The position numbers and the translations under genes are program-made. Of a stretch of 23,482 bases of DNA, positions 6,026-23,482 are shown in pieces. This DNA is from Candidatus Fermentibacteraceae bacterium (GTDB lineage: Bacteria; Fermentibacterota; Fermentibacteria; Fermentibacterales; JCC-6). The notes beneath the pieces were generated by a model. That model ran no database searches. It worked only from the letters and a program-made list of their open reading frames with translations, and was not told the origin of the DNA. The number at the start of each line of letters is the position of its first letter. Within the stretch, counting starts at the first letter, position 1. Location of the stretch: positions 38,720-62,201 of the forward strand of contig JAWLEP010000015.1 in assembly GCA_041686025.1 (NCBI GenBank), in the 5' to 3' direction.

Positions 6026-7288
6026 CTATATCTCGGCGCCGTCGGGGATGACGGCGTTCTTGTGGATCACCACGATGCCGTCGCGGATGTGGTAGCCCTC
6101 CCCTTCGCCCTCCGTCTTTCCCTGGCTGTTGCGAATCCTCACTCCGTCGCCGATGCGGGCGTTCTTGTCTATTATGGCCCCCTCTATGACGCAGTCACGG
6201 CCGATCCCCAGCCTGGGGAGGTTGGGCTCCTGCAGTCCCGGGTCGCTGTAATGCCCCTCCCAGTAGTCGGCTCCCATGTAAACGCAGTTGCGCAGCTGGC
6301 TGCCGGCGCGTATGCGGCCGCGCAGCCCCACTATGCAGCAATCTATCTCTGCACCCTGAAGGTCTGAGGCGTCGCAGATCACCGAGCTCCTGATGCTGCA
6401 GCTGTCGATCCTGGCGCCCGGCAGCGCCCTTGCCCTGGTGTACAGGGGCGAGAAGTTGCGGTACATGTCGAAGCTGGGATTCTCGCTGGCCATGTCCAGG
6501 TTGGCGTCGAAGAAGCTGGCGATGGTCCCGATGTCGGACCAGTAGCCGTCGAAGGGGTAGCTGAAGACCCTGTGGTTCCCTATGGCGTAGGGTATGATCT
6601 CGTGGCCGAAGTCGGTGTGGGTGGGGTTGGCGTCCAGCACCCCCCGCAGGACGTCCGGGCTGAACAGGTAGATGCCCATGCTGCCCAGGTAGGGCTTCTC
6701 TTCGGTCAGCCCCTCCTGGCTGCTCTTCAAGGGCTCCAGCTCGTGGGCATCGGGCTTCTCGTGGAAGTGCCCGATCCTCCCCTCCTCCGAGACCTTCATT
6801 ATGCCCATGGAGGTGGCCTCTGACGCGTCCACCGGCTTGGTGGCTATGGTGATCTCCGCCCCCGTCTCCCGGTGGTGCTCGATGAAGCGGTTGAAGTCCA
6901 TCCTGTAGAGCTGGTCGCCGGAGAGTATCAGCACCAGTCCGGGATTCAGCCCCATTATGTGGCGAAGGCTCTTCCTCACAGCGTCGGCGGTGCCCTGGAA
7001 CCAGTCGCGGTTGTCGAAGGTCTGCTCGGCGGCCAGGATGGACACGAAGCCGTTGTTGAAGCGGTCGAACCGGTAGGTCTGCGCCACGTGCCTGTTCAGG
7101 CTCTCGCTGTTGTACTGGGTGAGGACGAAGATGTGGCGGAGATGGTCGTTGACGCAGTTGGACACCGGAATGTCTATCAGCCGGTACTTGCCCCCTATGG
7201 GAACGGCGGGCTTGCTCCTGTGCATGGTCAGGGGAAACAGCCTGGTTCCCTTGCCGCCGCCGAGGATTACCGAGACCACCCTTTTCAT
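6026..7288 (-). CDS. glgC: Glucose-1-phosphate adenylyltransferase (ADP-glucose pyrophosphorylase)
   Basis: ILGGGKGTRLFPLT...SKPAVPIGGKYRLIDIPVSN, WFQGTADAVR, LSGDQLYRMD, FHEKP, SMGIYLF, DFGHEIIP, YWSDIGT, and a C-terminal beta-helix IIDKNARIG. ATG at 7288. Confidence 0.97.
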   Translation of the reverse strand: MKRVVSVILGGGKGTRLFPLTMHRSKPAVPIGGKYRLIDIPVSNCVNDHLRHIFVLTQYNSESLNRHVAQTYRFDRFNNGFVSILAAEQTFDNRDWFQGTADAVRKSLRHIMGLNPGLVLILSGDQLYRMDFNRFIEHHRETGAEITIATKPVDASEATSMGIMKVSEEGRIGHFHEKPDAHELEPLKSSQEGLTEEKPYLGSMGIYLFSPDVLRGVLDANPTHTDFGHEIIPYAIGNHRVFSYPFDGYWSDIGTIASFFDANLDMASENPSFDMYRNFSPLYTRARALPGARIDSCSIRSSVICDASDLQGAEIDCCIVGLRGRIRAGSQLRNCVYMGADYWEGHYSDPGLQEPNLPRLGIGRDCVIEGAIIDKNARIGDGVRIRNSQGKTEGEGEGYHIRDGIVVIHKNAVIPDGAEI

Positions 7289-7366
7289 AGCTGGACCCAC
7301 TCCTTCCGGAAGGTGATGACGCTGTATCTGCTCGGGCGCAAAGCATGGATATTATGGATCTCATAT

Positions 7367-13133: not shown

Positions 13134-14969
13134 CTACTCCACCGTAACGCTCTTGGCCAGGTTCCTGGGCTTGTCCACGTCGCATCCCCGGGAAACGGCC
13201 ACGTAGTAGCTCAGAAGCTGCAGCGGGACCACCGAGAGCAGCGGCACCAGCGCGTCGGGCGCCTCGGGGATGTGGATGACCCAGTCGGAGACGCTGGCGA
13301 TCTCGGTGTCGCCCTCGGTGGCTATGGAGAGCACCCTTCCCTGCCTGGCCCTCACCTCGGCTATGTTGGAGAGGATCTTCTCGTAGGCGGCGTCGCGGAC
13401 GGCGATGGCGCAGACGGGCATCATCTCGTCGATCAGGGCGATGGGGCCGTGCTTCATCTCCGCCGCCGGGTAGCCCTCGGCATGGATGTAGGATATCTCC
13501 TTGAGCTTCAGCGCCCCCTCCAGGGCCACCGGGTAGTTGTAGCCGCGGCCCAGGTAGAGGAAGTTTCTGGCGTATGTGAACTCCCTGGCGATCTCTTCGA
13601 TCTTGGGGGAGTCCCCGAGTATCTGCTCCACCTTCTCCGGAATGGACATGAGCTCGCGGGTGAGCTCCAGGCCGCTGGCCCTGTCCAGCTCGCCCCTGGC
13701 CCTTCCGAAGGCCAGGGCTATCAGGGCCTGCACCATTACCTGGGAGGTGAAGGCCTTCGTCGACGCCACCCCTATCTCCGGCCCGGCGTGTATGTAGACT
13801 CCCGCGTCGGTCTCGCGGGCGATGGTGGAGCCCACCACGTTCACAACGCCGTATGCCCTGCATCCCTTGGACTTGGCAAGACGAAGGGCGGCCAGCGTAT
13901 CGGCGGTCTCCCCGCTCTGGCTGATCACGAAGACCAGTGTGCCGGGGTCCATCACCGGGTCCCGGTAGCGGAACTCGGACGCGTACTCCACCGAGACCGG
14001 TATCCGGGCCAGGCCCTCCATGAGGTACTTGCCTATCAGGGCCGCGTGCCAGGAGGTCCCGCAGGCGGTGATGATGATCCTGCTGACGGCGCGCATGTCG
14101 CTGTCGGTCATGTTCAACCCGCCCAGGTGGGCGGTGCCGCCGTCCAGGTCCAGCCTGCCCCGGAAGGCGTTCCGGAGCGACTCGGGCTGGCTGTTGATCT
14201 CCTTGAGCATGAAGTGGGTGTAGCCGTCCTTCTCGATGGTGGAGAGGTCCCAGTCCACGGTCTCGATGCGCTCCCGGAGCACGCCGGTGCGGCCGTTGTT
14301 GCTGGAGATCCCCCTGAGGCTCACCTCCAGCACCTCGCCCTCGTCCATGTAGATCACGTCCCGGGTGTGCGATACTATGGCGGCCACGTCGCTGGCCACG
14401 AGGTACTCCTTCTCCCCCACCCCCACCACCAGGGGGCTTCCGTAGCGGGCGGCCACCAGGGTGTCGGGCTCGTCGGCGGAGACCACGGCTATGCCGTAGG
14501 CCCCCCGGACCCTCCCCAGGGCGTCGCGTACCGCGGCGAACAGCTTCTTGCCCTTCGCCGCCTCCGAGCCCACCAGCTTGGCGATCACCTCGGAGTCCGT
14601 TTCGGAGTAGAACTCTATCCCCCCGGACTCCAGCTCCCTCCGGAGCTGGGTGTAGTTCTCGATTATCCCGTTGTGGACCAGGGCGATCCTGCCGCTGGCG
14701 TCCGTATGGGGATGGGCGTTCCTCTGGGAGGGCTCGCCGTGGGTGGCCCAGCGGGTGTGGGCGATGCCGCAGGTGGCGGCGTCCACCCCCTCGGGCCGCT
14801 GGCTGTCCAGCTCGTCCACCCGGCCCTTCTGCCGGCGCAGTATGAGGCCGCCGGTGCCCTGGAGGGCGTATCCCGCGGAGTCGTATCCCCTGTACTCAAG
14901 CCTCTTCAGGCCCGATATGAGCACGTCGAGCACGGGCCTCTCGCCTACGTAGCCAACAATTCCACACAT
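13134..14969 (-). CDS. glmS: Glutamine--fructose-6-phosphate aminotransferase (isomerizing)
   Basis: MCGIVG, LEYRGYDSAG, HTRWATHG, HNGIIEN, SQSGETADT, EIGVASTKAFT, ALKLKEISYIHAEG and DKPRNLAKSVTVE. Confidence 0.99.
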   Translation of the reverse strand: MCGIVGYVGERPVLDVLISGLKRLEYRGYDSAGYALQGTGGLILRRQKGRVDELDSQRPEGVDAATCGIAHTRWATHGEPSQRNAHPHTDASGRIALVHNGIIENYTQLRRELESGGIEFYSETDSEVIAKLVGSEAAKGKKLFAAVRDALGRVRGAYGIAVVSADEPDTLVAARYGSPLVVGVGEKEYLVASDVAAIVSHTRDVIYMDEGEVLEVSLRGISSNNGRTGVLRERIETVDWDLSTIEKDGYTHFMLKEINSQPESLRNAFRGRLDLDGGTAHLGGLNMTDSDMRAVSRIIITACGTSWHAALIGKYLMEGLARIPVSVEYASEFRYRDPVMDPGTLVFVISQSGETADTLAALRLAKSKGCRAYGVVNVVGSTIARETDAGVYIHAGPEIGVASTKAFTSQVMVQALIALAFGRARGELDRASGLELTRELMSIPEKVEQILGDSPKIEEIAREFTYARNFLYLGRGYNYPVALEGALKLKEISYIHAEGYPAAEMKHGPIALIDEMMPVCAIAVRDAAYEKILSNIAEVRARQGRVLSIATEGDTEIASVSDWVIHIPEAPDALVPLLSVVPLQLLSYYVAVSRGCDVDKPRNLAKSVTVE

Positions 14970-16315
14970 CAGCCGCTCACTACCTTTCGGAACCTCTGAA
15001 GCTCGGCGCGGACCGCGTCCGCGCTCGCATCCTCGCAGATCACCCTGATGACGGGCTCCGTCCCGGAGGGCCTCACGTGGGTCCAGCCGCTTTCGCGGCG
15101 GTACCAGAGGCCGTCCCTCGCGTCGTCCGGTTCTCCCAGAGCCTCTATCAGGTCAGGTCGAATATCCGAAAAATCCCCGTCGAAGGGTACCTTGTCCTTT
15201 ACCATGCTGTACCCGGGGAAGGACCCCGCCCAATCCGAGAGGGAGGTCCCGCGGGCATCCATCAGTGACAGCGTGTAGGCCATGGCCACTCCGCTGTCGC
15301 GCCCCAGGTGGAAGGAGGGGTCTATCACGCCGCCGTTGCCCTCGCCGCCGATGACGGCGCCGCGGCGCTCCATCTCCTCCACCACGTTGACCTCGCCCAC
15401 CGGGCTTCGAAAGACCTCCGCCCCGTGCCTGGCCGCGGCGTCTTCGGCCAGCCGCGACGTGGAGAGGTTCACGACAGCGCATCCGGGCCTCTCGCCCAGC
15501 ACGTAGTCGATGGCCAGGGCCACCGTGAGATCCTCGCCCATGACCCGGCCTTCGCCGTCCACCAGGGCCAGCCTGTCGCCGTCGGGGTCGAAGCCGAATC
15601 CCACGTCGGCGCCGGTCCGGCCCACCTCGGCCGCCAGCTCGTCCAGGCTTTCGGCGGTGGGCTCGGCGACCCTGGGAAAGCTGCCGTCCTCGCCGATGCG
15701 GGGGTTGATCACCCTGTGCTCCACCCCCAGCGCGTCCATCAGGGCCGGGGCGAACTCCGCCGCCGCTCCGCCGGTGACGTCCAGCACGGCCTTCAGCCGC
15801 CTCTCCGGCCTGCGCACCAGGGGCAGGTCCAGCACCCTGCGCACATGTCGCCCCACCGCTCCCGGAAGACCCTCGGGGGAGCAGGCCTCCGCGGCGCCCA
15901 GCCAGGACGGCCCGGCCTTCAGCAGCTCCATCAGCCTACTCCGGAGGTCGGCCCGGAGGAAAACCCCGTCGGGCCCCACCAGCTTCAGAGCGTTCCACTC
16001 CCCGGGATTGTGGCTGGAGGTTACTGCCACCCCTCCGGCAACGCCCTCCGCCATGGCCTCCAGCTGCACGGTGGGCGTGGGGACCACCCCCAGCATCACC
16101 GGCGTGCAGCCCACCGACATCAGCCCTGCGGCCACCGCGGACTCCATGGCCGGCCCGCTCTTGCGGGTGTCCCTACCCAGGACGATCCTGCCCGGGCCCA
16201 TCAGCCGGCCGAAGGCCGCCGCGTACTCCACTGCGTCGGTGACGGTGAGGGATCGGCCGAAGATGCCCCTGATTCCGGAGCCGCTTACTATCGGGCCGTG
16301 CATCGGATGCTCCAT
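14969..16315 (-). CDS. glmM: Phosphoglucosamine mutase / phosphohexomutase
   Basis: SGIRG, GRDTRKSG, phospho-Ser TSSHNP, metal loop DPDGDR, GGEGNGG and RPSGTEP. It is coupled to glmS by a TGATG overlap. Start is at 16315 or 16303. Confidence 0.85.
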   Translation of the reverse strand: MEHPMHGPIVSGSGIRGIFGRSLTVTDAVEYAAAFGRLMGPGRIVLGRDTRKSGPAMESAVAAGLMSVGCTPVMLGVVPTPTVQLEAMAEGVAGGVAVTSSHNPGEWNALKLVGPDGVFLRADLRSRLMELLKAGPSWLGAAEACSPEGLPGAVGRHVRRVLDLPLVRRPERRLKAVLDVTGGAAAEFAPALMDALGVEHRVINPRIGEDGSFPRVAEPTAESLDELAAEVGRTGADVGFGFDPDGDRLALVDGEGRVMGEDLTVALAIDYVLGERPGCAVVNLSTSRLAEDAAARHGAEVFRSPVGEVNVVEEMERRGAVIGGEGNGGVIDPSFHLGRDSGVAMAYTLSLMDARGTSLSDWAGSFPGYSMVKDKVPFDGDFSDIRPDLIEALGEPDDARDGLWYRRESGWTHVRPSGTEPVIRVICEDASADAVRAELQRFRKVVSG

Positions 16316-16325
16316 GTCGGGTAAG

Positions 16326-16401
16326 TGGAGCCGGCGATCGGACTCGAACCGATGACCTGCGCATTACGAATGCGCTGCTCTGCCAGCTGAGCTACGCCGG
16401 C
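16326..16401 (-). tRNA. tRNA-Thr (anticodon CGT), CCA encoded
   Basis: Reverse complement GCCGGCGTAGCTCAGCTGGCAGAGCAGCGCATTCGTAATGCGCAGGTCATCGGTTCGAGTCCGATCGCCGGCTCCA is a 76-nt cloverleaf. Confidence 0.98.
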
Positions 16402-16469: not shown

Positions 16470-17096
16470 TCAGTTCAGAAGCGATCTCTCGGCCCCGTGA
16501 ATCGAGACGGAGAACCCCATGCTCAACGAGTAGTAGCTCAGGTCGAACTCCTCGGGAGGGTAGATTATCGTATCCGATCCGTCGTAGGTTGCCTCGTCGG
16601 TCTTCATGTCCATGAAGGACCTGGTGAAGCCCAGGGTTCCGGAGACCGGCCCCCAGAGGTCCACGGAAGCGCCGGCGGTGAGACCTATGCCCACGCTTCC
16701 CCCGTCCCCCTCCACAAAGCGTCCGAAGTCGTCGGTGCCCTGGTACTCTCCGCTGGCGTAGATGGCGCCGGGGCCGCCGTGGACCGACAGACCCGGCCGG
16801 GCCTCCCAGGAGACCACGGGCCATACCGAGAGGGCCCAGGCGCTGATCCTGCCGTCCCAGTCCTCCGGGCTGTCCTTTGCGAACCTCTCCGCCCGCAGGC
16901 GGAAGCCCAGAAGGCCGGGGGAGTCCAGGGCCAGCTCCCCTCCCCACGCGATGCCGGGGGTGAGGAAGCGGCTCTCGTACTGCTCCTCGTAGGGCGAGAG
17001 ACTGGCCGCGGTGGGACCCGCCGAGACCTCCAGGCCGGCAATGGCCAGGGCGGCGGCCGGGACCAGCGGCACCAGAGCAAAGGCCGCCAGCCGCAC
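16470..17096 (-). CDS. Putative outer-membrane beta-barrel protein (small 8-strand type)
   Basis: Signal peptide MRLAAFALVPLVPAAALA and amphipathic strands (GLEVSAG, WGGELAL, LSVHGGPGAIY, IGLTAGASV, YSLSMGFSVSI). The GTG start overlaps the upstream TAG. Confidence 0.6.
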   Translation of the reverse strand: MRLAAFALVPLVPAAALAIAGLEVSAGPTAASLSPYEEQYESRFLTPGIAWGGELALDSPGLLGFRLRAERFAKDSPEDWDGRISAWALSVWPVVSWEARPGLSVHGGPGAIYASGEYQGTDDFGRFVEGDGGSVGIGLTAGASVDLWGPVSGTLGFTRSFMDMKTDEATYDGSDTIIYPPEEFDLSYYSLSMGFSVSIHGAERSLLN

Positions 17097-17584
17097 TACT
17101 CGCCGCCCTTCACGGTCTTCCGAATGTGAGCCAGCAGGCCGCCGTCCTCCAGTATCTCCAGCATCTCGTCGGGAAGTGCGGGGAAGTCGAAATCCTCTCC
17201 GCCCACGGTGACCACGCCCCGCCCGGGGTCCACCTCCACCTCGTCACCGGGGCTGTAGGCTTCCACGGCCTCGGGGCTCTCCACCAGGAGCAGGCCCTGG
17301 TTTATGGCGCTGCGGTAGAATATCCTGGCGAAGGACCGGGCTATCACGGCCTCCACACCCACGTAGCGCAGCCCCACCGAGGGCTGCTCGCGGCTGGAGC
17401 CGCAGCCGAAGTTCCTTCCGGCCATCAGCACGTCCCCCGGCTGCACCTTCCCGGCGAACTCCGGGTCCAGGTCCTCCAGCAGGTGCTCCCTTATCTCGGG
17501 GCCGGTGGAGCACTTGTACGTGTACTTGCCCGGAAAGAGCAGATCGGTGTTGATGTCGTCGCGGTCGTAGTAGTGAACGGCCAT
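17096..17584 (-). CDS. 3-isopropylmalate dehydratase / homoaconitase small subunit (LeuD/HacB type)
   Basis: DDINTDLLFPGKY, AGRNFGCGSSREQ, IARSFARIFYRSAINQGL and ILEDGGLL. Confidence 0.93.
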   Translation of the reverse strand: MAVHYYDRDDINTDLLFPGKYTYKCSTGPEIREHLLEDLDPEFAGKVQPGDVLMAGRNFGCGSSREQPSVGLRYVGVEAVIARSFARIFYRSAINQGLLLVESPEAVEAYSPGDEVEVDPGRGVVTVGGEDFDFPALPDEMLEILEDGGLLAHIRKTVKGGE

Positions 17585-17585
17585 T

Positions 17586-18842
17586 CTAACGCACCTCCCT
17601 GGGGTCGGCTATGTAACCGGCGATGGCGGTGGCGGCCGCTGTCTCGGCGCTGCCCAGCCAGATCTCGGCCTCCTTCTCGCCCATCCTCCCCTGGAAGTTC
17701 CGGTTGGCGGTGGAGAGGCACCTCTCCCCCGGGGCCAGGGCCCCCATGTGGGCCCCCAGGCAGGGGCCGCATCCGGGCGGGATCACCATGGCCCCGGCCT
17801 CCACGAACCTGGCCAGGAGACCGGCCCGGTCGGCCTTGAGGTAGACCTCCCTGGAGGCGGGGCCCACTATCATCCTGACGTTCCCGTGCACCGGGGCCTC
17901 CCCCATTACGTCCAGGGCGGCCTCCAGGTCATCCAGCCTGCCGTTGGTGCAGGTGCCCAGGAAGACCTGGTCCACCTCTACCTTACCCAACTCGGAGATG
18001 GGTGCCACGTTGTCCACGTTGTGCGGCATGGCCACCACAGGCTCCAGCTCCTCCAGGTCGTACTCACGGACCTGGCAGAACTCCGCGTCCACGTCGCTCC
18101 ACATGGTCTGCGTGGCGTCCGGACCCCTGTTGCGCAGGTACTCCTGCGTGACCCGGTCCACGGGGAAAACCGCCAGCTTCGCCCCCATCTCTATGCCCAT
18201 GTTGGCCATGGTCATCCGGTCCGACATCCGCAGGCTGCCGATGGCGGGGCCGTGGAACTCCACCGCCATGTAGTTGGCGCCGTCGGCGCCCATGTCGCCG
18301 ATTATCCTCAGGATCAGGTCCTTGGCGGAGACCCTGCCCACCAGGTGCCCCGTCATCTCGATGGACACGGTGGGCGGCACCTTGAACCAGGTCTTGCCCG
18401 TGATCCACAGTCCCGCCGCCTCTGTCCGGTCGATGCCGGCGGCGAAGGCGTTGAAGGCGCCGTAGGTGCAGGTGTGGCTGTCGCTGCCCACGATAACGGC
18501 CCCGGGGGACACCAGCCCCATCTCGGGAAGGACCTGATGGCAGATCCCGGTCCCCGCGTCGTAGAAGTGCTCTATTCCCTGCTCCCTCACGAACCGCCGT
18601 ATCTTGGCGTGCCCGGCGGCGTTCTTGCTTGAGGCCGCCGGAACCACGTGGTCCAGCACGATGGCCAGCCTGTCGGGGTAGCGCACCCTCCCCCCCGGTA
18701 CGGTTGACTCGAACTTGTCTATGATGGCGGCGGTGTTGTCGTGGGTCAGGACGTAGTCGGGCTCCACGAATACTATGTCCCCGACCTCGAGGTCCCTCCC
18801 AGACTCACGGCCCAGTATCTTCTGGGCAAAGGTCTTACCCAT
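17586..18842 (-). CDS. 3-isopropylmalate dehydratase / homoaconitase large subunit (LeuC type 2/HacA), [4Fe-4S]
   Basis: LDHVVP, GICHQV, GSDSHTCTYGA, GTCTNGR, CGPCLG and STANRNFQGRMG. Confidence 0.95.
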   Translation of the reverse strand: MGKTFAQKILGRESGRDLEVGDIVFVEPDYVLTHDNTAAIIDKFESTVPGGRVRYPDRLAIVLDHVVPAASSKNAAGHAKIRRFVREQGIEHFYDAGTGICHQVLPEMGLVSPGAVIVGSDSHTCTYGAFNAFAAGIDRTEAAGLWITGKTWFKVPPTVSIEMTGHLVGRVSAKDLILRIIGDMGADGANYMAVEFHGPAIGSLRMSDRMTMANMGIEMGAKLAVFPVDRVTQEYLRNRGPDATQTMWSDVDAEFCQVREYDLEELEPVVAMPHNVDNVAPISELGKVEVDQVFLGTCTNGRLDDLEAALDVMGEAPVHGNVRMIVGPASREVYLKADRAGLLARFVEAGAMVIPPGCGPCLGAHMGALAPGERCLSTANRNFQGRMGEKEAEIWLGSAETAAATAIAGYIADPREVR

Positions 18843-19037: not shown

Positions 19038-20507
19038 ATGCGACTTCTGAGGGGCCGCGAAGAGGTGGCCGAGCAGGCGGCCGACCTCCTGGCCGACGAG
19101 AGCAGCCTCTCGGGAGGCTGGGCGGTGGAGGCGGCCTGGCCGGCGAACCCGGAGGAGGCCTCCGGCTACCTGCGCGACCTTGCCCGTCGGGGGATCCCCG
19201 CCACACCTTCCGGTGCCCTCACCGGAATTGCCGCCGGGGCGGTCCCGGAGGGGGGAGCCGTGTTATCGACCTCCCAGATGAAGAACATCGAGTACCTGGG
19301 GGACCGGCTGCTGCGGGTGGGAGCCGGGGTAACCCTCGACGAGATAGACCGGTACCTGGCCCGGCAGTCGCTCCCCCTCTTCTACCCCCCGGACCCCACG
19401 GAGACCACCGCCAGCATAGGCGGCACGCTGGCCACCGACGCCTCCGGGTCGGACAGCTACCTCTACGGCTCCACCAGGCACTGGGTGGAGGCGGCGGAGA
19501 TGGTCCTCCCCGACGGGGAGCGGCTGAGCCTCTCCCGGGGCGACCGCACGTTCCGTGAGGGCTCCTGTGACGTTCCCGGAGCGGGCCCGGTGCGGCTGCC
19601 CGAAACCGTCCGGCCGCCGCTGCCCAAGAACGCCGCCGGCTACTGGATCAGGCCCGGGATGGACCTGGTGGACCTGCTCATAGGCTCGGAGGGAACCCTG
19701 GGCGTGTTCACAGGAGCCACGCTGGTCCTGCGGCCGAAGCCCCATTCCCTGGTGGACCTGGCCGTCTTCCCCCAATCGATGGATGCTTTCTGGGACCTCT
19801 TCGATTCGCTGCTGGCCGTGGAGTCCCGGGTCAGGGCGGTGGAGATGATGGACGGCCCCTGCATCGACCTCCTGCGGCGGCATCCCCCCGAGGGTCTGCC
19901 GGAGCTCCCGGAGGCCGCCGCCGTGCTGCTGCTGCGGGCGGAGGCGGAGGACGAGGCCGGCCTGGACGCCCTTCTGGAAGAGCTGGACGGGGTCCTCTCC
20001 GCCGCCGGCATCCCCCTGGACGAGACCTGGGGCGGTTTCGAGGAGACCGAGCACCGCCGCATGGTGGAGCTTCGGCACAGCCTGCCGGAGACGGTGAACG
20101 AGCTGGTCTCCCGGGCCAGGCGGGACGATCCTGCGGTCCACAAGCTGGGCTCCGACGCCGCGGTGGACGCCGCCGCCGCGCGGCAGCTCTACCAGGGAAC
20201 CCGCGACATCCTGGAGGACATGGAGCTCCCCCACCTGGTCTTCGGCCACGTGGGCCAGGGCCACCTGCACGCAAACGTAATCCCCCGGAGCCGCCGGCAG
20301 CTGGAGGCCGGAGAGGCCGCCATGCGACGCATAGCGGCCCTGGCGGCCGGTATGGGGGGCACCGTCTCCGCCGAGCACGGGCTGGGCCGGCTCAAGGCCT
20401 CCTTCCTTGAGCTCATGCTGTCTCCCGAGGAGCTGGCGGGCATGCGCGATATCCGCCGAGCCTTCGACCCCCACGGCCTCCTCTGCCCCGCGGTGACGTG
20501 GGCCTAG
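19038..20507 (+). CDS. FAD-linked oxidoreductase, D-2-hydroxyacid dehydrogenase / GlcD family (VAO/PCMH fold)
   Basis: SGALTG, FYPPDPT, SIGGTLATDASG, KNAAGY, LIGSEGTLG, and C-terminal FGHVGQGHLH and AEHGLG metal/catalytic motifs. Confidence 0.92.
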   Translation: MRLLRGREEVAEQAADLLADESSLSGGWAVEAAWPANPEEASGYLRDLARRGIPATPSGALTGIAAGAVPEGGAVLSTSQMKNIEYLGDRLLRVGAGVTLDEIDRYLARQSLPLFYPPDPTETTASIGGTLATDASGSDSYLYGSTRHWVEAAEMVLPDGERLSLSRGDRTFREGSCDVPGAGPVRLPETVRPPLPKNAAGYWIRPGMDLVDLLIGSEGTLGVFTGATLVLRPKPHSLVDLAVFPQSMDAFWDLFDSLLAVESRVRAVEMMDGPCIDLLRRHPPEGLPELPEAAAVLLLRAEAEDEAGLDALLEELDGVLSAAGIPLDETWGGFEETEHRRMVELRHSLPETVNELVSRARRDDPAVHKLGSDAAVDAAAARQLYQGTRDILEDMELPHLVFGHVGQGHLHANVIPRSRRQLEAGEAAMRRIAALAAGMGGTVSAEHGLGRLKASFLELMLSPEELAGMRDIRRAFDPHGLLCPAVTWA

Positions 20508-20884
20508 GCCGGCCGGTCCGCGGACCCCGCGCCCGGGAGGGGGCCTGCCGCTTCGCCTCCGGCGGGATAAGGCTGGAGCCGGGCTCGGATCCGGCGGAGG
20601 CGGCGGAGCTGCTGGTTCGCCGGCTGAAGATGCGAAAGGCCAGCCACGTCAGCTGGGCCTGCCGCACCCGCTCGGACGGCCGCACCGACGAGGCCAAGAG
20701 CGACGGCGGCGAGAGCGGCGCCGGAAACGTCATACTGGAGGTGCTCCGGAAGGCGGCCGCGGAGAACGTCCTGGTGGCGGTGGCCCGCTGGTACGGCGGC
20801 AAGCACCTGGGCGGCCTGCGCTTCCGCGTCTACAGCAGGCTCACCTCGGGAACGCTCCGGAGGCTCCGCAGACCTTCCTCCTAG
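20498..20884 (+). CDS. YigZ/IMPACT-family (UPF0029) single-domain protein
   Basis: KASHVSWACR, SDGGESGAG and NVLVAVARWYGGKHLGG. The start is uncertain (GTG overlapping the previous gene). Confidence 0.8.
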   Translation: MGLGRPVRGPRAREGACRFASGGIRLEPGSDPAEAAELLVRRLKMRKASHVSWACRTRSDGRTDEAKSDGGESGAGNVILEVLRKAAAENVLVAVARWYGGKHLGGLRFRVYSRLTSGTLRRLRRPSS

Positions 20885-20885
20885 C

Positions 20886-20915
20886 TTGCGTCACCTCCCC
20901 CCCTCCCCCTATCTT
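20886..20915 (+). promoter_or_regulatory. Possible promoter for the riboswitch leader
   Basis: TTGCGT (20886-20891), 18-nt spacer, TATCTT (20910-20915), ending about 7 nt before the riboswitch P1. Confidence 0.4.
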
Positions 20916-20921
20916 CGCTCC

Positions 20922-21094
20922 GTCGGCAGCGTCAGGGAAGCCGGTGAGAGTCCGGCGCGGCCCCGCCGCTGTAACCGGGAGCGAAACCGCTGGTTCAAGC
21001 GCGCCGAAGGCGCGGTTGATACGCCATTCTCGGACCCGTCCGGGGAGAAGGCGCGGTAGTAGTCGGCCCGGAAGCCAGAAGACCTTCTGCCGAC
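20922..21094 (+). ncRNA. Cobalamin (B12) riboswitch
   Basis: Core AGGGAAGCCGGTGAGAGTCCGGCGCGGCCCCGCCGCTGTAA, peripheral GCCA...GAAGGC and B12 box GAAGCCAGAAGACCT. The closing stem is GTCGGCAG (20922-20929)/CTGCCGAC (21087-21094). Confidence 0.93.
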
Positions 21095-21173
21095 TCCTTG
21101 ACGTCACCTTCGCGGGGGGGTGCGGAAGACGGGGTGTCTACTGCATTCAATCGCGGCAGAGCAGGGAGGACGC

Positions 21174-22364
21174 ATGGGCGCACTTCTACTGCTGCCGCTG
21201 TCACTGATCTCGGCCGGCCGGGCCTGGGTAATAAACGGTGACAGCCTGGGCTACGCCGACCTCTCCACCGGCTACGTGGAGCAGGGGGCGCTGGAGCTGG
21301 CCACCTATCCCAACGATCTGACCCTTCACGGCGACTACCTCTACGCGGTGTGCTCCGGCTCGGACGGGCAGGCGCTGCAGCGCATCGATCCGGGCACCAT
21401 GGAGGTGGAGGACCTGGCCATAGGCACCGGATACAACTGCTGGTCGTCGCTTCCCCTGGACGACGGGCATCTGGCGGTATCCGCCGCCCTGGCGGACAGG
21501 GTGGTTATCGTCAACACCGCGAGTTTCACCGTGGAGAGCGAGATCGAAGGCGTGGGGCCCAACCCGGAGGGGATGTGCCTCCGCGGCGACAGCCTCTGGG
21601 TGGCCTGCGGCGGCTGGGGCGCAGACGACAACCTGGTGGTGGTGGACCTGGCAGCGGGGGAGCCGGTGGACACCGTCGCGGTGGGCGTCAACTGCCAGTC
21701 GGTGGCCTGGGACGGAGCAGACGAGCTGGTGGTGGTCTGCAGCGGCGCCTACGGCTCCGGAGAGGGGTCGGTGTCCTTCGTGGACCCCCAGACCATGCAG
21801 GAGACCGAGTCCGTTGCGGTGGGGGGCTTTCCATCCACGCTGCAGATCCGCGGAGGCCGCGCATACGCAGGCGACGGCTGGGGACCGGGGGTCTACGAGG
21901 TGGACGTGGAAACCCACGAGGTACTGCACGACTCCTCCGACCCGCTCTGCCCCGGAGGGACGGGCTTCGGCCTCGACGGCGGCGGCGCCCTCTACGTCTC
22001 AGATGCCGCGGGGGGTGCGGTGACGGTCTACGACGGGGATATGGAGCAGCTGGAGGCGTACCTCTTCTCCAGCCCGACCGCCGTCGCCGTATCCGGCACC
22101 CTGACCGGGGTGGGCGGACCCGGGCCGCAGACGCCCTCCCGGCTGTCCGCAACGCCCTGTCCCGCAGTGAGCACGGTGCGGATAACGGGGGCGGACCCCG
22201 ACGAGCCGGTCATGGTGACCGACCTCGCGGGCCGGGTGGTCGCCCGGGAGCCCTCCGGCCCCGAAGGAACGGCCATCCTGACCGTCTCGGGCCTGGGCAG
22301 CGGGGTCTACCTGGTCCGCAGCGGCCGGGCCTCCACCCGTCTGGTTGTGCTGGGGGGGCGGTAG
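21174..22364 (+). CDS. Secreted YncE/BtuG-like beta-propeller with C-terminal T9SS type-A sorting-like domain (396 aa)
   Basis: SD GGGAGGA then ATG 21174, with a short signal peptide. It has repeated ~40-aa blades (YPNDLTLHGDYLYAVCSG; NPEGMCLRGDSLWVACGG; NCQSVAWDGADELVVVCSG) and the tail TPCPA...VTDLAGRVV...LGSGVYLV...RLVVL. Confidence 0.8.
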   Translation: MGALLLLPLSLISAGRAWVINGDSLGYADLSTGYVEQGALELATYPNDLTLHGDYLYAVCSGSDGQALQRIDPGTMEVEDLAIGTGYNCWSSLPLDDGHLAVSAALADRVVIVNTASFTVESEIEGVGPNPEGMCLRGDSLWVACGGWGADDNLVVVDLAAGEPVDTVAVGVNCQSVAWDGADELVVVCSGAYGSGEGSVSFVDPQTMQETESVAVGGFPSTLQIRGGRAYAGDGWGPGVYEVDVETHEVLHDSSDPLCPGGTGFGLDGGGALYVSDAAGGAVTVYDGDMEQLEAYLFSSPTAVAVSGTLTGVGGPGPQTPSRLSATPCPAVSTVRITGADPDEPVMVTDLAGRVVAREPSGPEGTAILTVSGLGSGVYLVRSGRASTRLVVLGGR

Positions 22365-22365
22365 C

Positions 22366-23202
22366 ATGACCCCGGGGATTCTGGTCCTGCTGGCGGTCCT
22401 GGCCCAGGGGGGCGACCCCTGGGCCGACTGGTCGGAGCTGGTGGAGTACGGGGAGGGCGCCGGCTTCGGCCAGGAGTATTACCCCGGCAACATCCTGGGT
22501 CCCCCCGATCCCGGGGCCACGCCGGAGGTCCCCTCCAGCAGCCCCGAGGAGCTGCTCACCCTGGGAGAGGACGGCTGGGTGGTGCTGGAGTTCACGGACA
22601 ACGTGGTGACCGACGGCCCCGGGCCCGACCTCACCGTCTTCGAGAACGTCATGGAGCTGGGGGGCGGCGACTACTTCCGGGAGTGCGCCTTCGTGGAGGT
22701 GAGCCAGGACGGCCAAACCTGGACCCGCTTCCCCTGGGACCCCCAGACACTGGAGGGCCTGGCGGGGGTGTGGCCCACCACGGGAGAGGACCCCACCGAC
22801 CCGGAGGTCTCCGGCGGCGACCAGTTCGACCTGGCCGACCTGGGCCTTCCCTGGATCACCCACGTCCGGCTGGTGGACTGCGGGGCGGAGGTGGAGGACG
22901 ACGGCCTCTTCGACCTCGACGCCGTGGTGGCCGTCCACTGGGAGACGGCCGTGGAGACTCCGTCAACGGCCGGCCCCGTACTGCGGGCAGGCTCGCCCTT
23001 CCGCTCCAGCCTGACGGTGGAGGTCTCATCCCCCGGTCTGCTGCGGATCTTCTCCGCTGACGGCAGGCTCCTTCAGAGCATGCGTCTGCCTTCCGGGGCC
23101 TCCAGCCTGGATGCCTCTTGCCTTTCCGCCGGATGCTGCCTGCTGCAGTTCGTTCCCGAGGGTTCGGCGGCAGCGGATTGCTGCAGAGCGGTGAAGCTCT
23201 AG
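22366..23202 (+). CDS. Secreted acidic cell-surface protein, BtuH-like domain, with C-terminal sorting-like tail (278 aa)
   Basis: ATG lies 1 nt after the previous stop. Motifs LGPPD, LTLGEDGWVVLEF...DGPGPDLTVFEN...E.AFVEVSQDG..W, GGDQFDLADLG...HVRLVD and FDLDAV, with tail SPFRSSL...IFSADGRLL...LSAG...AVKL. Confidence 0.75.
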   Translation: MTPGILVLLAVLAQGGDPWADWSELVEYGEGAGFGQEYYPGNILGPPDPGATPEVPSSSPEELLTLGEDGWVVLEFTDNVVTDGPGPDLTVFENVMELGGGDYFRECAFVEVSQDGQTWTRFPWDPQTLEGLAGVWPTTGEDPTDPEVSGGDQFDLADLGLPWITHVRLVDCGAEVEDDGLFDLDAVVAVHWETAVETPSTAGPVLRAGSPFRSSLTVEVSSPGLLRIFSADGRLLQSMRLPSGASSLDASCLSAGCCLLQFVPEGSAAADCCRAVKL

Positions 23203-23232: not shown

Positions 23233-23262
23233 TTGACCCGACCATCGTCTCGGCAGTATTCT
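23233..23262 (+). promoter_or_regulatory. Putative promoter for the last (partial) gene
   Basis: TTGACC (23233-23238), 18-nt spacer, TATTCT (23257-23262). Confidence 0.45.
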
Positions 23263-23361: not shown

Positions 23362-23482
23362 ATGTACACACCGTACACTTTCTTCTACGGCATTTGGCTC
23401 TTCGTCATAGGCGTTCTCGCAGCGCCCAACATCATCATTTCCCGCAAGCCCGAAGCCAAGGAGTGGATCGACAAGCTGGTTC
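23362..23482 (+). CDS. Hypothetical membrane protein, 5' part (runs off the window; absent from the ORF track)
   Basis: SD GAGGAGG then ATG 23362: MYTPYTFFYGIWLFVIGVLAAPNIIISRKPEAKEWIDKLV..., open to the window end with strongly biased codons. Confidence 0.75.
   Translation, partial: MYTPYTFFYGIWLFVIGVLAAPNIIISRKPEAKEWIDKLV

Follow-up and report, generated by a model that had tools for sequence, protein, structure and literature searches.

Accessory binders of vitamin B12 (cobalamin) have so far been characterised solely as lipoproteins of gut Bacteroides. PMC12751083 describes BtuJ and BtuG of Bacteroides thetaiotaomicron as holding B12 with its lower ligand outward and BtuH as holding the opposite side, and proposes transfer from BtuJ to BtuH to BtuG. 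In bioRxiv 10.1101/2022.11.17.516869, Trp194, Tyr239 and Trp272 are named as pocket residues of BtuG2 and its binding face is described as negatively charged, while PMC8941943 and PMC13616437 place Asn399, Phe401 and Glu406 of BtuH2 at the nucleotide-loop and metal site. Here, we compare with these systems a locus of Candidatus Fermentibacteraceae bacterium (assembly GCA_041686025.1; 2.7 Mb, 67% GC, 94.75% complete), in which a cobalamin riboswitch leads two open reading frames (ORFs), ORF1 and ORF2, near the end of contig JAWLEP010000015.1; the window is the whole stretch of 23,482 nt that was analysed. The pair is a real, conserved variant of the Btu accessory relay and includes an unannotated family, here called mini-BtuH. 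It is, in our assessment, probably a riboswitch-led two-gene satellite of B12 uptake, with products that are predicted to be exported by a SprA/PorV route of the type IX secretion (T9SS) kind and that likely capture corrinoids beyond the outer membrane, to supply a BtuB-BtuG importer encoded at another locus. The unit comprises the following features, in window positions.

20910 to 21105, forward strand: cobalamin riboswitch aptamer RF00174 (Rfam; model positions 1-189, full length; 73.3 bits against a gathering cut-off of 31.5; E 1.3e-16)
21105 to 21169, forward strand: expression platform, with two competing hairpins and a Shine-Dalgarno (SD) sequence
21174 to 22364, forward strand: ORF1 (P0001, 396 aa), with a predicted signal peptide, a BtuG-like propeller and a T9SS-type C-terminal domain (CTD)
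21219 to 22097, forward strand: predicted seven-bladed beta-propeller of ORF1, residues 16-308 (AlphaFold model and alignment to BtuG2)
22140 to 22361, forward strand: putative T9SS type-A-like sorting domain of ORF1 (below the curated cut-off; many homologues carry a precomputed PF18962 match)
22366 to 23202, forward strand: ORF2 (P0002, 278 aa), with a predicted signal peptide, a mini-BtuH domain and a T9SS-type CTD
22408 to 22941, forward strand: mini-BtuH domain of ORF2, residues 15-192 (VIA structural search, Z 13.9 to 7biz; hhalign 96%, E 4.7e-9)
22972 to 23199, forward strand: putative T9SS type-A-like beta-sandwich of ORF2 (structure match and PF18962 matches in the family)
23233 to 23262, forward strand: sigma70-like promoter (TTGACC-18-TATTCT) of the following gene, which has its ATG at 23362

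As the preliminary description of this DNA had it, the riboswitch directly precedes a two-gene operon with a 1-nt gap; its start lies 12 nt 5' of the position 20922 given there. The platform hairpin at 21105-21122 carries a loop, GCGGG, complementary to CCCGC in the aptamer (20962-20966), a pairing that we take, from class I riboswitches, to be the kissing loop. A longer hairpin reaching ~21155 is mutually exclusive with it, and the SD sequence GGGAGG follows at 21164-21169. Folding of 23 Fermentibacterota loci showed both hairpins to be conserved; under constraints, none of the 23 showed the SD sequence switching in the direction expected, and no terminator was called. Low B12 would raise expression, going by known riboswitch biology. 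Longer reading frames, from a GTG for ORF1 (414 aa) and a TTG for ORF2 (285 aa), were rejected, as homologues and SD sequences favour the ATGs. The search for sigma70-like sites 3' of ORF2 found one, against 0.1 expected in shuffles, and this promoter likely marks the end of the unit, within which there is neither btuB nor btuFCD, in agreement with what had been claimed. The next ORF, from 23362, runs off the contig end; its same-genus counterpart is a 145-aa hydrophobic protein that, judged on length, is not a transporter. Downstream neighbours of the pair vary in other genera, where the 145-aa ORF does not adjoin it. Contigs from one RNA run of a related strain (for the most part 90-95% alike) span much of the locus and were left unused as evidence, since contigs cannot show transcription or co-transcription.

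The arrangement recurs across the class; close homologues of the pair carry the names Ca. Aegiribacteria, Sabulitectum and Fermentibacteria. Of 61 class genomes, 29 encode a full-length ORF2, at 30 loci in all. At 28 of these 30, a riboswitch precedes the ORF2 homologue by no more than 2 kb, and ORF1 has one upstream at 28 of 29; both riboswitch-less loci sit at contig ends. Among the 28 riboswitch-linked loci, 26 have the order riboswitch-ORF1-ORF2, and at the other two the genes diverge and each has its own riboswitch, one of these riboswitches overlapping a truncated match. Divergent genes, each with its own riboswitch, were noted at L274 (G034:C8:5653-8900), where ORF1 is split over two frames, and at G051:C180. 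It counts against the proposed role that 32 of the 61 genomes have no full-length ORF2, which is therefore dispensable or unassembled there.

Exactly two RF00174 matches were found in the host genome. The second, on contig C10, precedes a TonB receptor with weak BtuB matches and a lipoprotein propeller. This btuB-like receptor was detected in 60 of the 61 class genomes, and a propeller follows it at each of the 21 loci examined; 14 of these propellers have a strict lipobox and the other seven a Cys after a hydrophobic stretch, as judged by eye. No TonB receptor stands beside the secreted pair at any of 17 class loci (flanks up to 6 kb), which bears out the earlier proposal that the pair is uncoupled from the transporter locus. 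Because the host retains a conventional lipoprotein BtuG next to btuB, the secreted pair adds to the lipoprotein lid and does not replace it. The host genome also holds 13 B12-binding domains over cut-off and two PF01497 proteins; CobS was not found in it, the same search matching 9 of 14 control genomes. In genus g7, the btuB riboswitch falls short of the gathering cut-off, at 24-31 bits (e.g., G018:C19:179546-179688), and the one preceding the secreted pair reaches 85-103 bits. A g7 locus, L277 (G032:C173:1756-7490), shows a riboswitch-led run of what look by eye like cobU/cobS/cobQ/cbiB salvage genes, in a genome with five riboswitch matches.

Relatives of ORF2 were taken from the best 80 of 368 GTDB matches, 63 of them outside the class, in KSB1, Calditrichota, Ignavibacteria, Bacteroidota, Zixibacteria and others. 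In 33 of 50 of these genomes and at 7 of 13 further loci, the 7 kb upstream of the ORF2 relative contain a riboswitch; for 11 of the 17 misses among the 50, the contig extends <3.5 kb upstream. Such proximity would arise by chance in well under 1% of cases at one or two riboswitches per genome, although kin are not independent. A TonB receptor is present at 40 of the 63 loci, a propeller at 49 and a CTD on the ORF2-type protein at 41, while in 16 the propeller and ORF2 domains are fused, as in BtuGH. Three loci (L060, L061 and L065) have the window's gene order and then directly the receptor. T9SS tagging is not special to this locus, as most relatives in the Fibrobacterota-Chlorobiota-Bacteroidota (FCB) group carry the tag inside btuB operons; the lineage-specific feature of the Fermentibacterota pair is its detachment from btuB. 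At the Kapaibacterium-like loci L098 (5695-6759), L099, L103 and L106, mini-BtuH lies between a TonB receptor and a propeller, DUF5522 opens the longest mini-BtuH ORFs (the Pfam match is displayed for L098), and no riboswitch was found upstream on the contig. Mini-BtuH proteins with no CTD match occur at L087, L088, L093, L097, L111, L113 and L116 (Binatia, Sumerlaeota, Myxococcales and Planctomycetes), several of them riboswitch-led, and some relatives have dockerin-type tails.

The separation from btuB would also suit a surface reservoir or a means of denial, in which each protein would bind corrinoids on its own, to store them or keep them away from neighbours, with no direct hand-off to BtuB-BtuG. 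BtuJ1 is described as a reservoir, and the divergent genes of G034 and G051, having a riboswitch each, need not act as a unit. We nevertheless consider this explanation unlikely, given that the fusions and the receptor co-location seen outside the class point to coupled delivery.

The satellite reading depends on what the two proteins are. The pair had been proposed to comprise BtuG- and BtuH-type binders, and for ORF1 a BtuG-like assignment is supported by profile and fold. A profile of 27 ORF1 sequences searched against the PDB gave BtuG2/BtuG3-type chains as its top nine matches (E 2e-10 to 1e-9), and the AlphaFold model (predicted local distance difference test, pLDDT, 87) has a seven-bladed propeller followed by a small C-terminal sandwich. 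Several results weigh on the other side. The model matches BtuG chains at Z 30.1-30.8, level with other propellers; both Foldseek and VIA place the archaeal surface-layer YVTN propeller 1l0q (Z 32.7) ahead of the BtuG chains, which come next and, in the VIA ranking, share their place with a lactonase. The fold alone therefore does not discriminate, and ORF1 scored 12 bits against the BtuG family model DUF5074, under its cut-off of 27.2. It is the pocket residues, as aligned, that discriminate: Trp194, Tyr239 and Trp272 of BtuG2 (numbering shifted by +45, as derived from the ranges over which 8baz and full-length 8bmx_D match) correspond to W148, Y193 and F219 of ORF1, of which W148 is invariant in the 27-sequence alignment and the other two are conserved at ≥90%. 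The propeller is acidic (44 D/E against 6 K/R), in agreement with the charge of the BtuG2 binding face. In a quick propeller tree, built on 10 of the 15 rows for ORF1 and 10 of the 20 for lipoproteins, the ORF1 clade and that of the host's own lipoprotein BtuG are separate (support 99 each), and ORF1 groups with CTD-bearing propellers of other phyla with support 80, from which we claim no order of events.

For ORF2, no Pfam or NCBIfam family covering residues 15-192 was found, single-sequence and profile searches of the PDB matched no BtuH, and the ESM Atlas returned unnamed clusters only, with scores ≤0.88. Only the wide VIA search, of 48,161 chains, resolved its fold. The AlphaFold model (pLDDT 92) ranked BtuH2 first (7biz; Z 13.9, root-mean-square deviation (rmsd) 3.0, 148 aligned) and the BtuH domain of BtuG1/BtuGH second (8blw_B; Z 13.5, rmsd 2.8), with the next same-domain match at Z 9.2. 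For profile-profile comparison, a canonical BtuH reference set was gathered with a sequence motif, 36 of 80 listed loci being aligned, and the alignment was confirmed against 7biz (E 5.5e-110). Against it, ORF2 reached 94% probability in hhalign and the domain alone 96%, with a maximum of 1.35% in 20 shuffles. Asn399 and Glu406 of BtuH2 align with N94 and E106 of ORF2, both invariant in 185 of 185 domains; position 96, aligned with Phe401, is Phe in 115 of the 185 and Met in ORF2. The BtuH metal site at the B12 phosphate consists of Asn399, Glu406, Asp522, Ser582 and Glu584. The invariant D183 and D185 would, from their position, correspond to Ser582 and Glu584, and no ORF2 counterpart of Asp522 aligned.

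The resemblance is incomplete. Foldseek with the whole model put PAPP-A first and 8blw 17th, with 7biz unlisted; the C-terminal half aligns weakly to BtuH (6% probability); Gln333 of BtuH does not align to the conserved Gln of ORF2; and a segment of ~90 residues in BtuH2 with His476, Tyr510 and Trp511 has no counterpart, all of which tell against a straightforward equivalence. The corrin-amide contacts assessed, His476, Tyr510, Trp511 and Trp577 in a domain of ~270 aa, are accordingly not reproduced as a set in ORF2, where the domain is ~180 residues long, shares 12-16% identity with BtuH and is acidic (38 D/E against 3 K/R). The canonical BtuH profile matched none of 61 class genomes, a set with no positive-control genome. 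The earlier assignment to BtuH is thus upheld for the fold and the profile match and qualified for the binding surface, part of which is missing: by predicted fold and profile-profile comparison, ORF2 is BtuH-like, and belongs to a compact separate family and not to canonical BtuH. This family has at least 834 clusters at 50% identity (E ≤1e-30), counted with a profile that includes the CTD, so that counts at weaker E are inflated. A weak match to the LIC_13355 family (E 0.004) was set aside, since the paper on it does not mention cobalamin, B12, riboswitch or TonB.

The missing segment and low identity, along with many invariant acidic residues and the CBM32 and PAPP-A matches at Z ~9, would also fit a scheme in which B12 binding is left to ORF1 alone, corrin binding having been lost in ORF2, which would serve as a metal-binding helper with a CBM32-like fold, for example as an anchor or to bind cobalt or a glycan. 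This is quite unlikely in our view: N94 and E106 align to the very site at which BtuH binds metal at the B12 phosphate, and a gene of the ORF2 type is the first after the riboswitch (at 99-481 nt) in several Ignavibacteria and KSB1 genomes.

Both proteins begin with a short hydrophobic stretch with no Cys, from which signal peptides were predicted by eye; Cys first appears at position 60 of ORF1 and position 107 of ORF2, and a lipobox expression matched none of 26 ORF1 and none of 63 ORF2 homologues, as expected from the preliminary description. The resemblance of the tails to T9SS type-A sorting domains, also noted there, is borne out by structure and family more than by curated models. The tail of the ORF2 model matches solved T9SS CTDs at Z 8.6-10.2 (best, the mirolase CTD 8qb1; Z 10.2, rmsd 1.5), the ORF2 profile (A2) matches 8glj and 8glk, and PF18962 is matched at E ≤0.1 by 39 of 105 ORF2 family members. 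On the opposite side, the ORF1 tail falls below the curated cut-offs (TIGR04183, 18.4 against 23 bits; PF18962, 17.1 against 27), and ORF2 alone has no CTD model match. We predict both tails to be divergent T9SS type-A-like sorting domains.

A search of the host genome for btuB and T9SS components, as had been suggested, returned, besides the btuB-like receptor, SprA and four PorV loci over cut-off, PorU-like genes just under it (best 418.8 bits against 420), and 80 CTD matches at E ≤0.01. SprA was detected in 57 of 63 genomes tested, including nine of nine Fermentibacterota, and of the six genomes lacking SprA, five carry ORF2 homologues with no CTD match. Less favourably, GldN was found in none of nine Fermentibacterota genomes, with the control, two Bacteroidetes genomes, giving sub-cut-off matches only, and the GldM search matched nothing in the host genome, its controls being equally blank. 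Because neither was detected, the machinery for export is perhaps not a canonical T9SS, and that of Fermentibacterota may be divergent or reduced. SprA with no detectable GldN was also observed in most other non-Bacteroidota FCB genomes tested, possibly reflecting a motor-less or divergent T9SS; related T9SS loci were flagged in the host genome (G000:C27:6853-10542, C11 and C13) and in the single-contig genome G004. The suggestion that the binders were re-routed through CTD-dependent secretion is supported by the presence of these genes; the host retains its lipoprotein BtuG and the tag is not locus-specific. That the tails are not export signals in this phylum, leaving the proteins as periplasmic B12 buffers or ORF1 as an alternative BtuB lid, is very improbable: undetected GldM and GldN and sub-cut-off CTD scores would allow it, but the SprA, PorV, PorU-like and CTD matches and the untagged ORF2 homologues of SprA-less genomes speak against it, and a Cys-signal propeller already follows btuB in every locus examined.

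In the preferred reading of a secreted satellite of B12 uptake, Sec export would be followed by recognition of the CTD and by release or surface attachment through a PorU-like enzyme. Going by pocket residues and acidic surfaces, ORF1 would bind corrin as BtuG does, with the lower ligand outward, and ORF2 would bind the nucleotide-loop side at the metal site as BtuH does. Most speculatively, these opposite faces would permit a hand-off from ORF1 to ORF2 to lipoprotein BtuG/BtuB, in which ORF1 would capture, ORF2 flip the face and lipoprotein BtuG load BtuB, the order being speculative. DUF4465, the BtuJ domain, was found in one of 61 class genomes and not in the host; with no BtuJ there, ORF1 in its place is therefore the simplest reading. 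A bolder version, offered tentatively and as somewhat doubtful, is that mini-BtuH is a new, widespread and compact corrinoid-binding family that grips B12 with a surface unlike that of BtuH and, in Fermentibacterota, forms with secreted BtuG a lipid-free G-to-H-to-G relay exported by SprA/PorV/PorU with no recognisable GldM/N motor.

Elsewhere in the window, FAD-linked oxidase and YigZ/IMPACT genes lie 5' of the riboswitch (19038-20884, forward strand); the YigZ gene adjoins the pair only in the same genus among loci tested and is outside the module. Genes at 13134-16315, 17096-18842 and 6026-7300, all on the reverse strand, are housekeeping by eye (GlmS, phosphohexomutase, LeuC/D-like, ADP-glucose pyrophosphorylase), and two tRNAs lie at 227-299 and 16329-16401.

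No report of T9SS-tagged B12 binders was found in the literature searched, which lay outside supplements and subscription papers; T9SS is nowhere mentioned in the accessible parts of PMC13616437 and PMC12751083, nor B12 or secretion in PMC5763382. The pair extends the BtuG/BtuH strategy to uncultured FCB lineages of sediments and digesters, gives a large unannotated domain family a testable function, and indicates that the binders are separable from the transporter and routable by a T9SS-type tail. As two small soluble domains, they lend themselves to in-vitro tests of whether B12 passes from BtuH to BtuG and of how little of BtuH suffices for binding. Were they to be released into the medium, the sharing of corrinoids within anaerobic communities would be affected.

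Like BtuG2 and BtuG3 of B. thetaiotaomicron (8bmx, 8baz, 8okv), ORF1 is a riboswitch-led, acidic, predicted seven-bladed propeller, in which the Trp194, Tyr239 and Trp272 positions are kept as W/Y/F; unlike them, it has no lipobox, and so neither lipid anchor nor linker hinge, carries a T9SS-type CTD, is not encoded beside btuB and shares ~17-21% identity. ORF2 resembles BtuH2 (7biz) and the BtuH domain of BtuGH/BtuG1 (8blw) in predicted fold and, by profile, in a homologous N-terminal half, with propeller fusions among its relatives recalling BtuGH, but its domain is shorter by a third, lacks His476, Tyr510 and Trp511, and has a CTD in place of a lipid anchor. With T9SS type-A cargo, the pair shares a C-terminal beta-sandwich (mirolase, PorZ, FspA and NucA CTDs; Z 8.9-10.2) and the presence of SprA, PorV and PorU-like genes, whereas GldM and GldN were not detected in Fermentibacterota and the cargo is a predicted vitamin binder. 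As in the B. thetaiotaomicron BtuJ-BtuH-BtuG-BtuB relay described in PMC13616437 and PMC12751083, accessory binders supplement a BtuB-BtuG core under cobalamin riboswitches; here, in another phylum and in a host with no BtuJ, the binders are not lipoproteins and have a separate, transporter-free operon.

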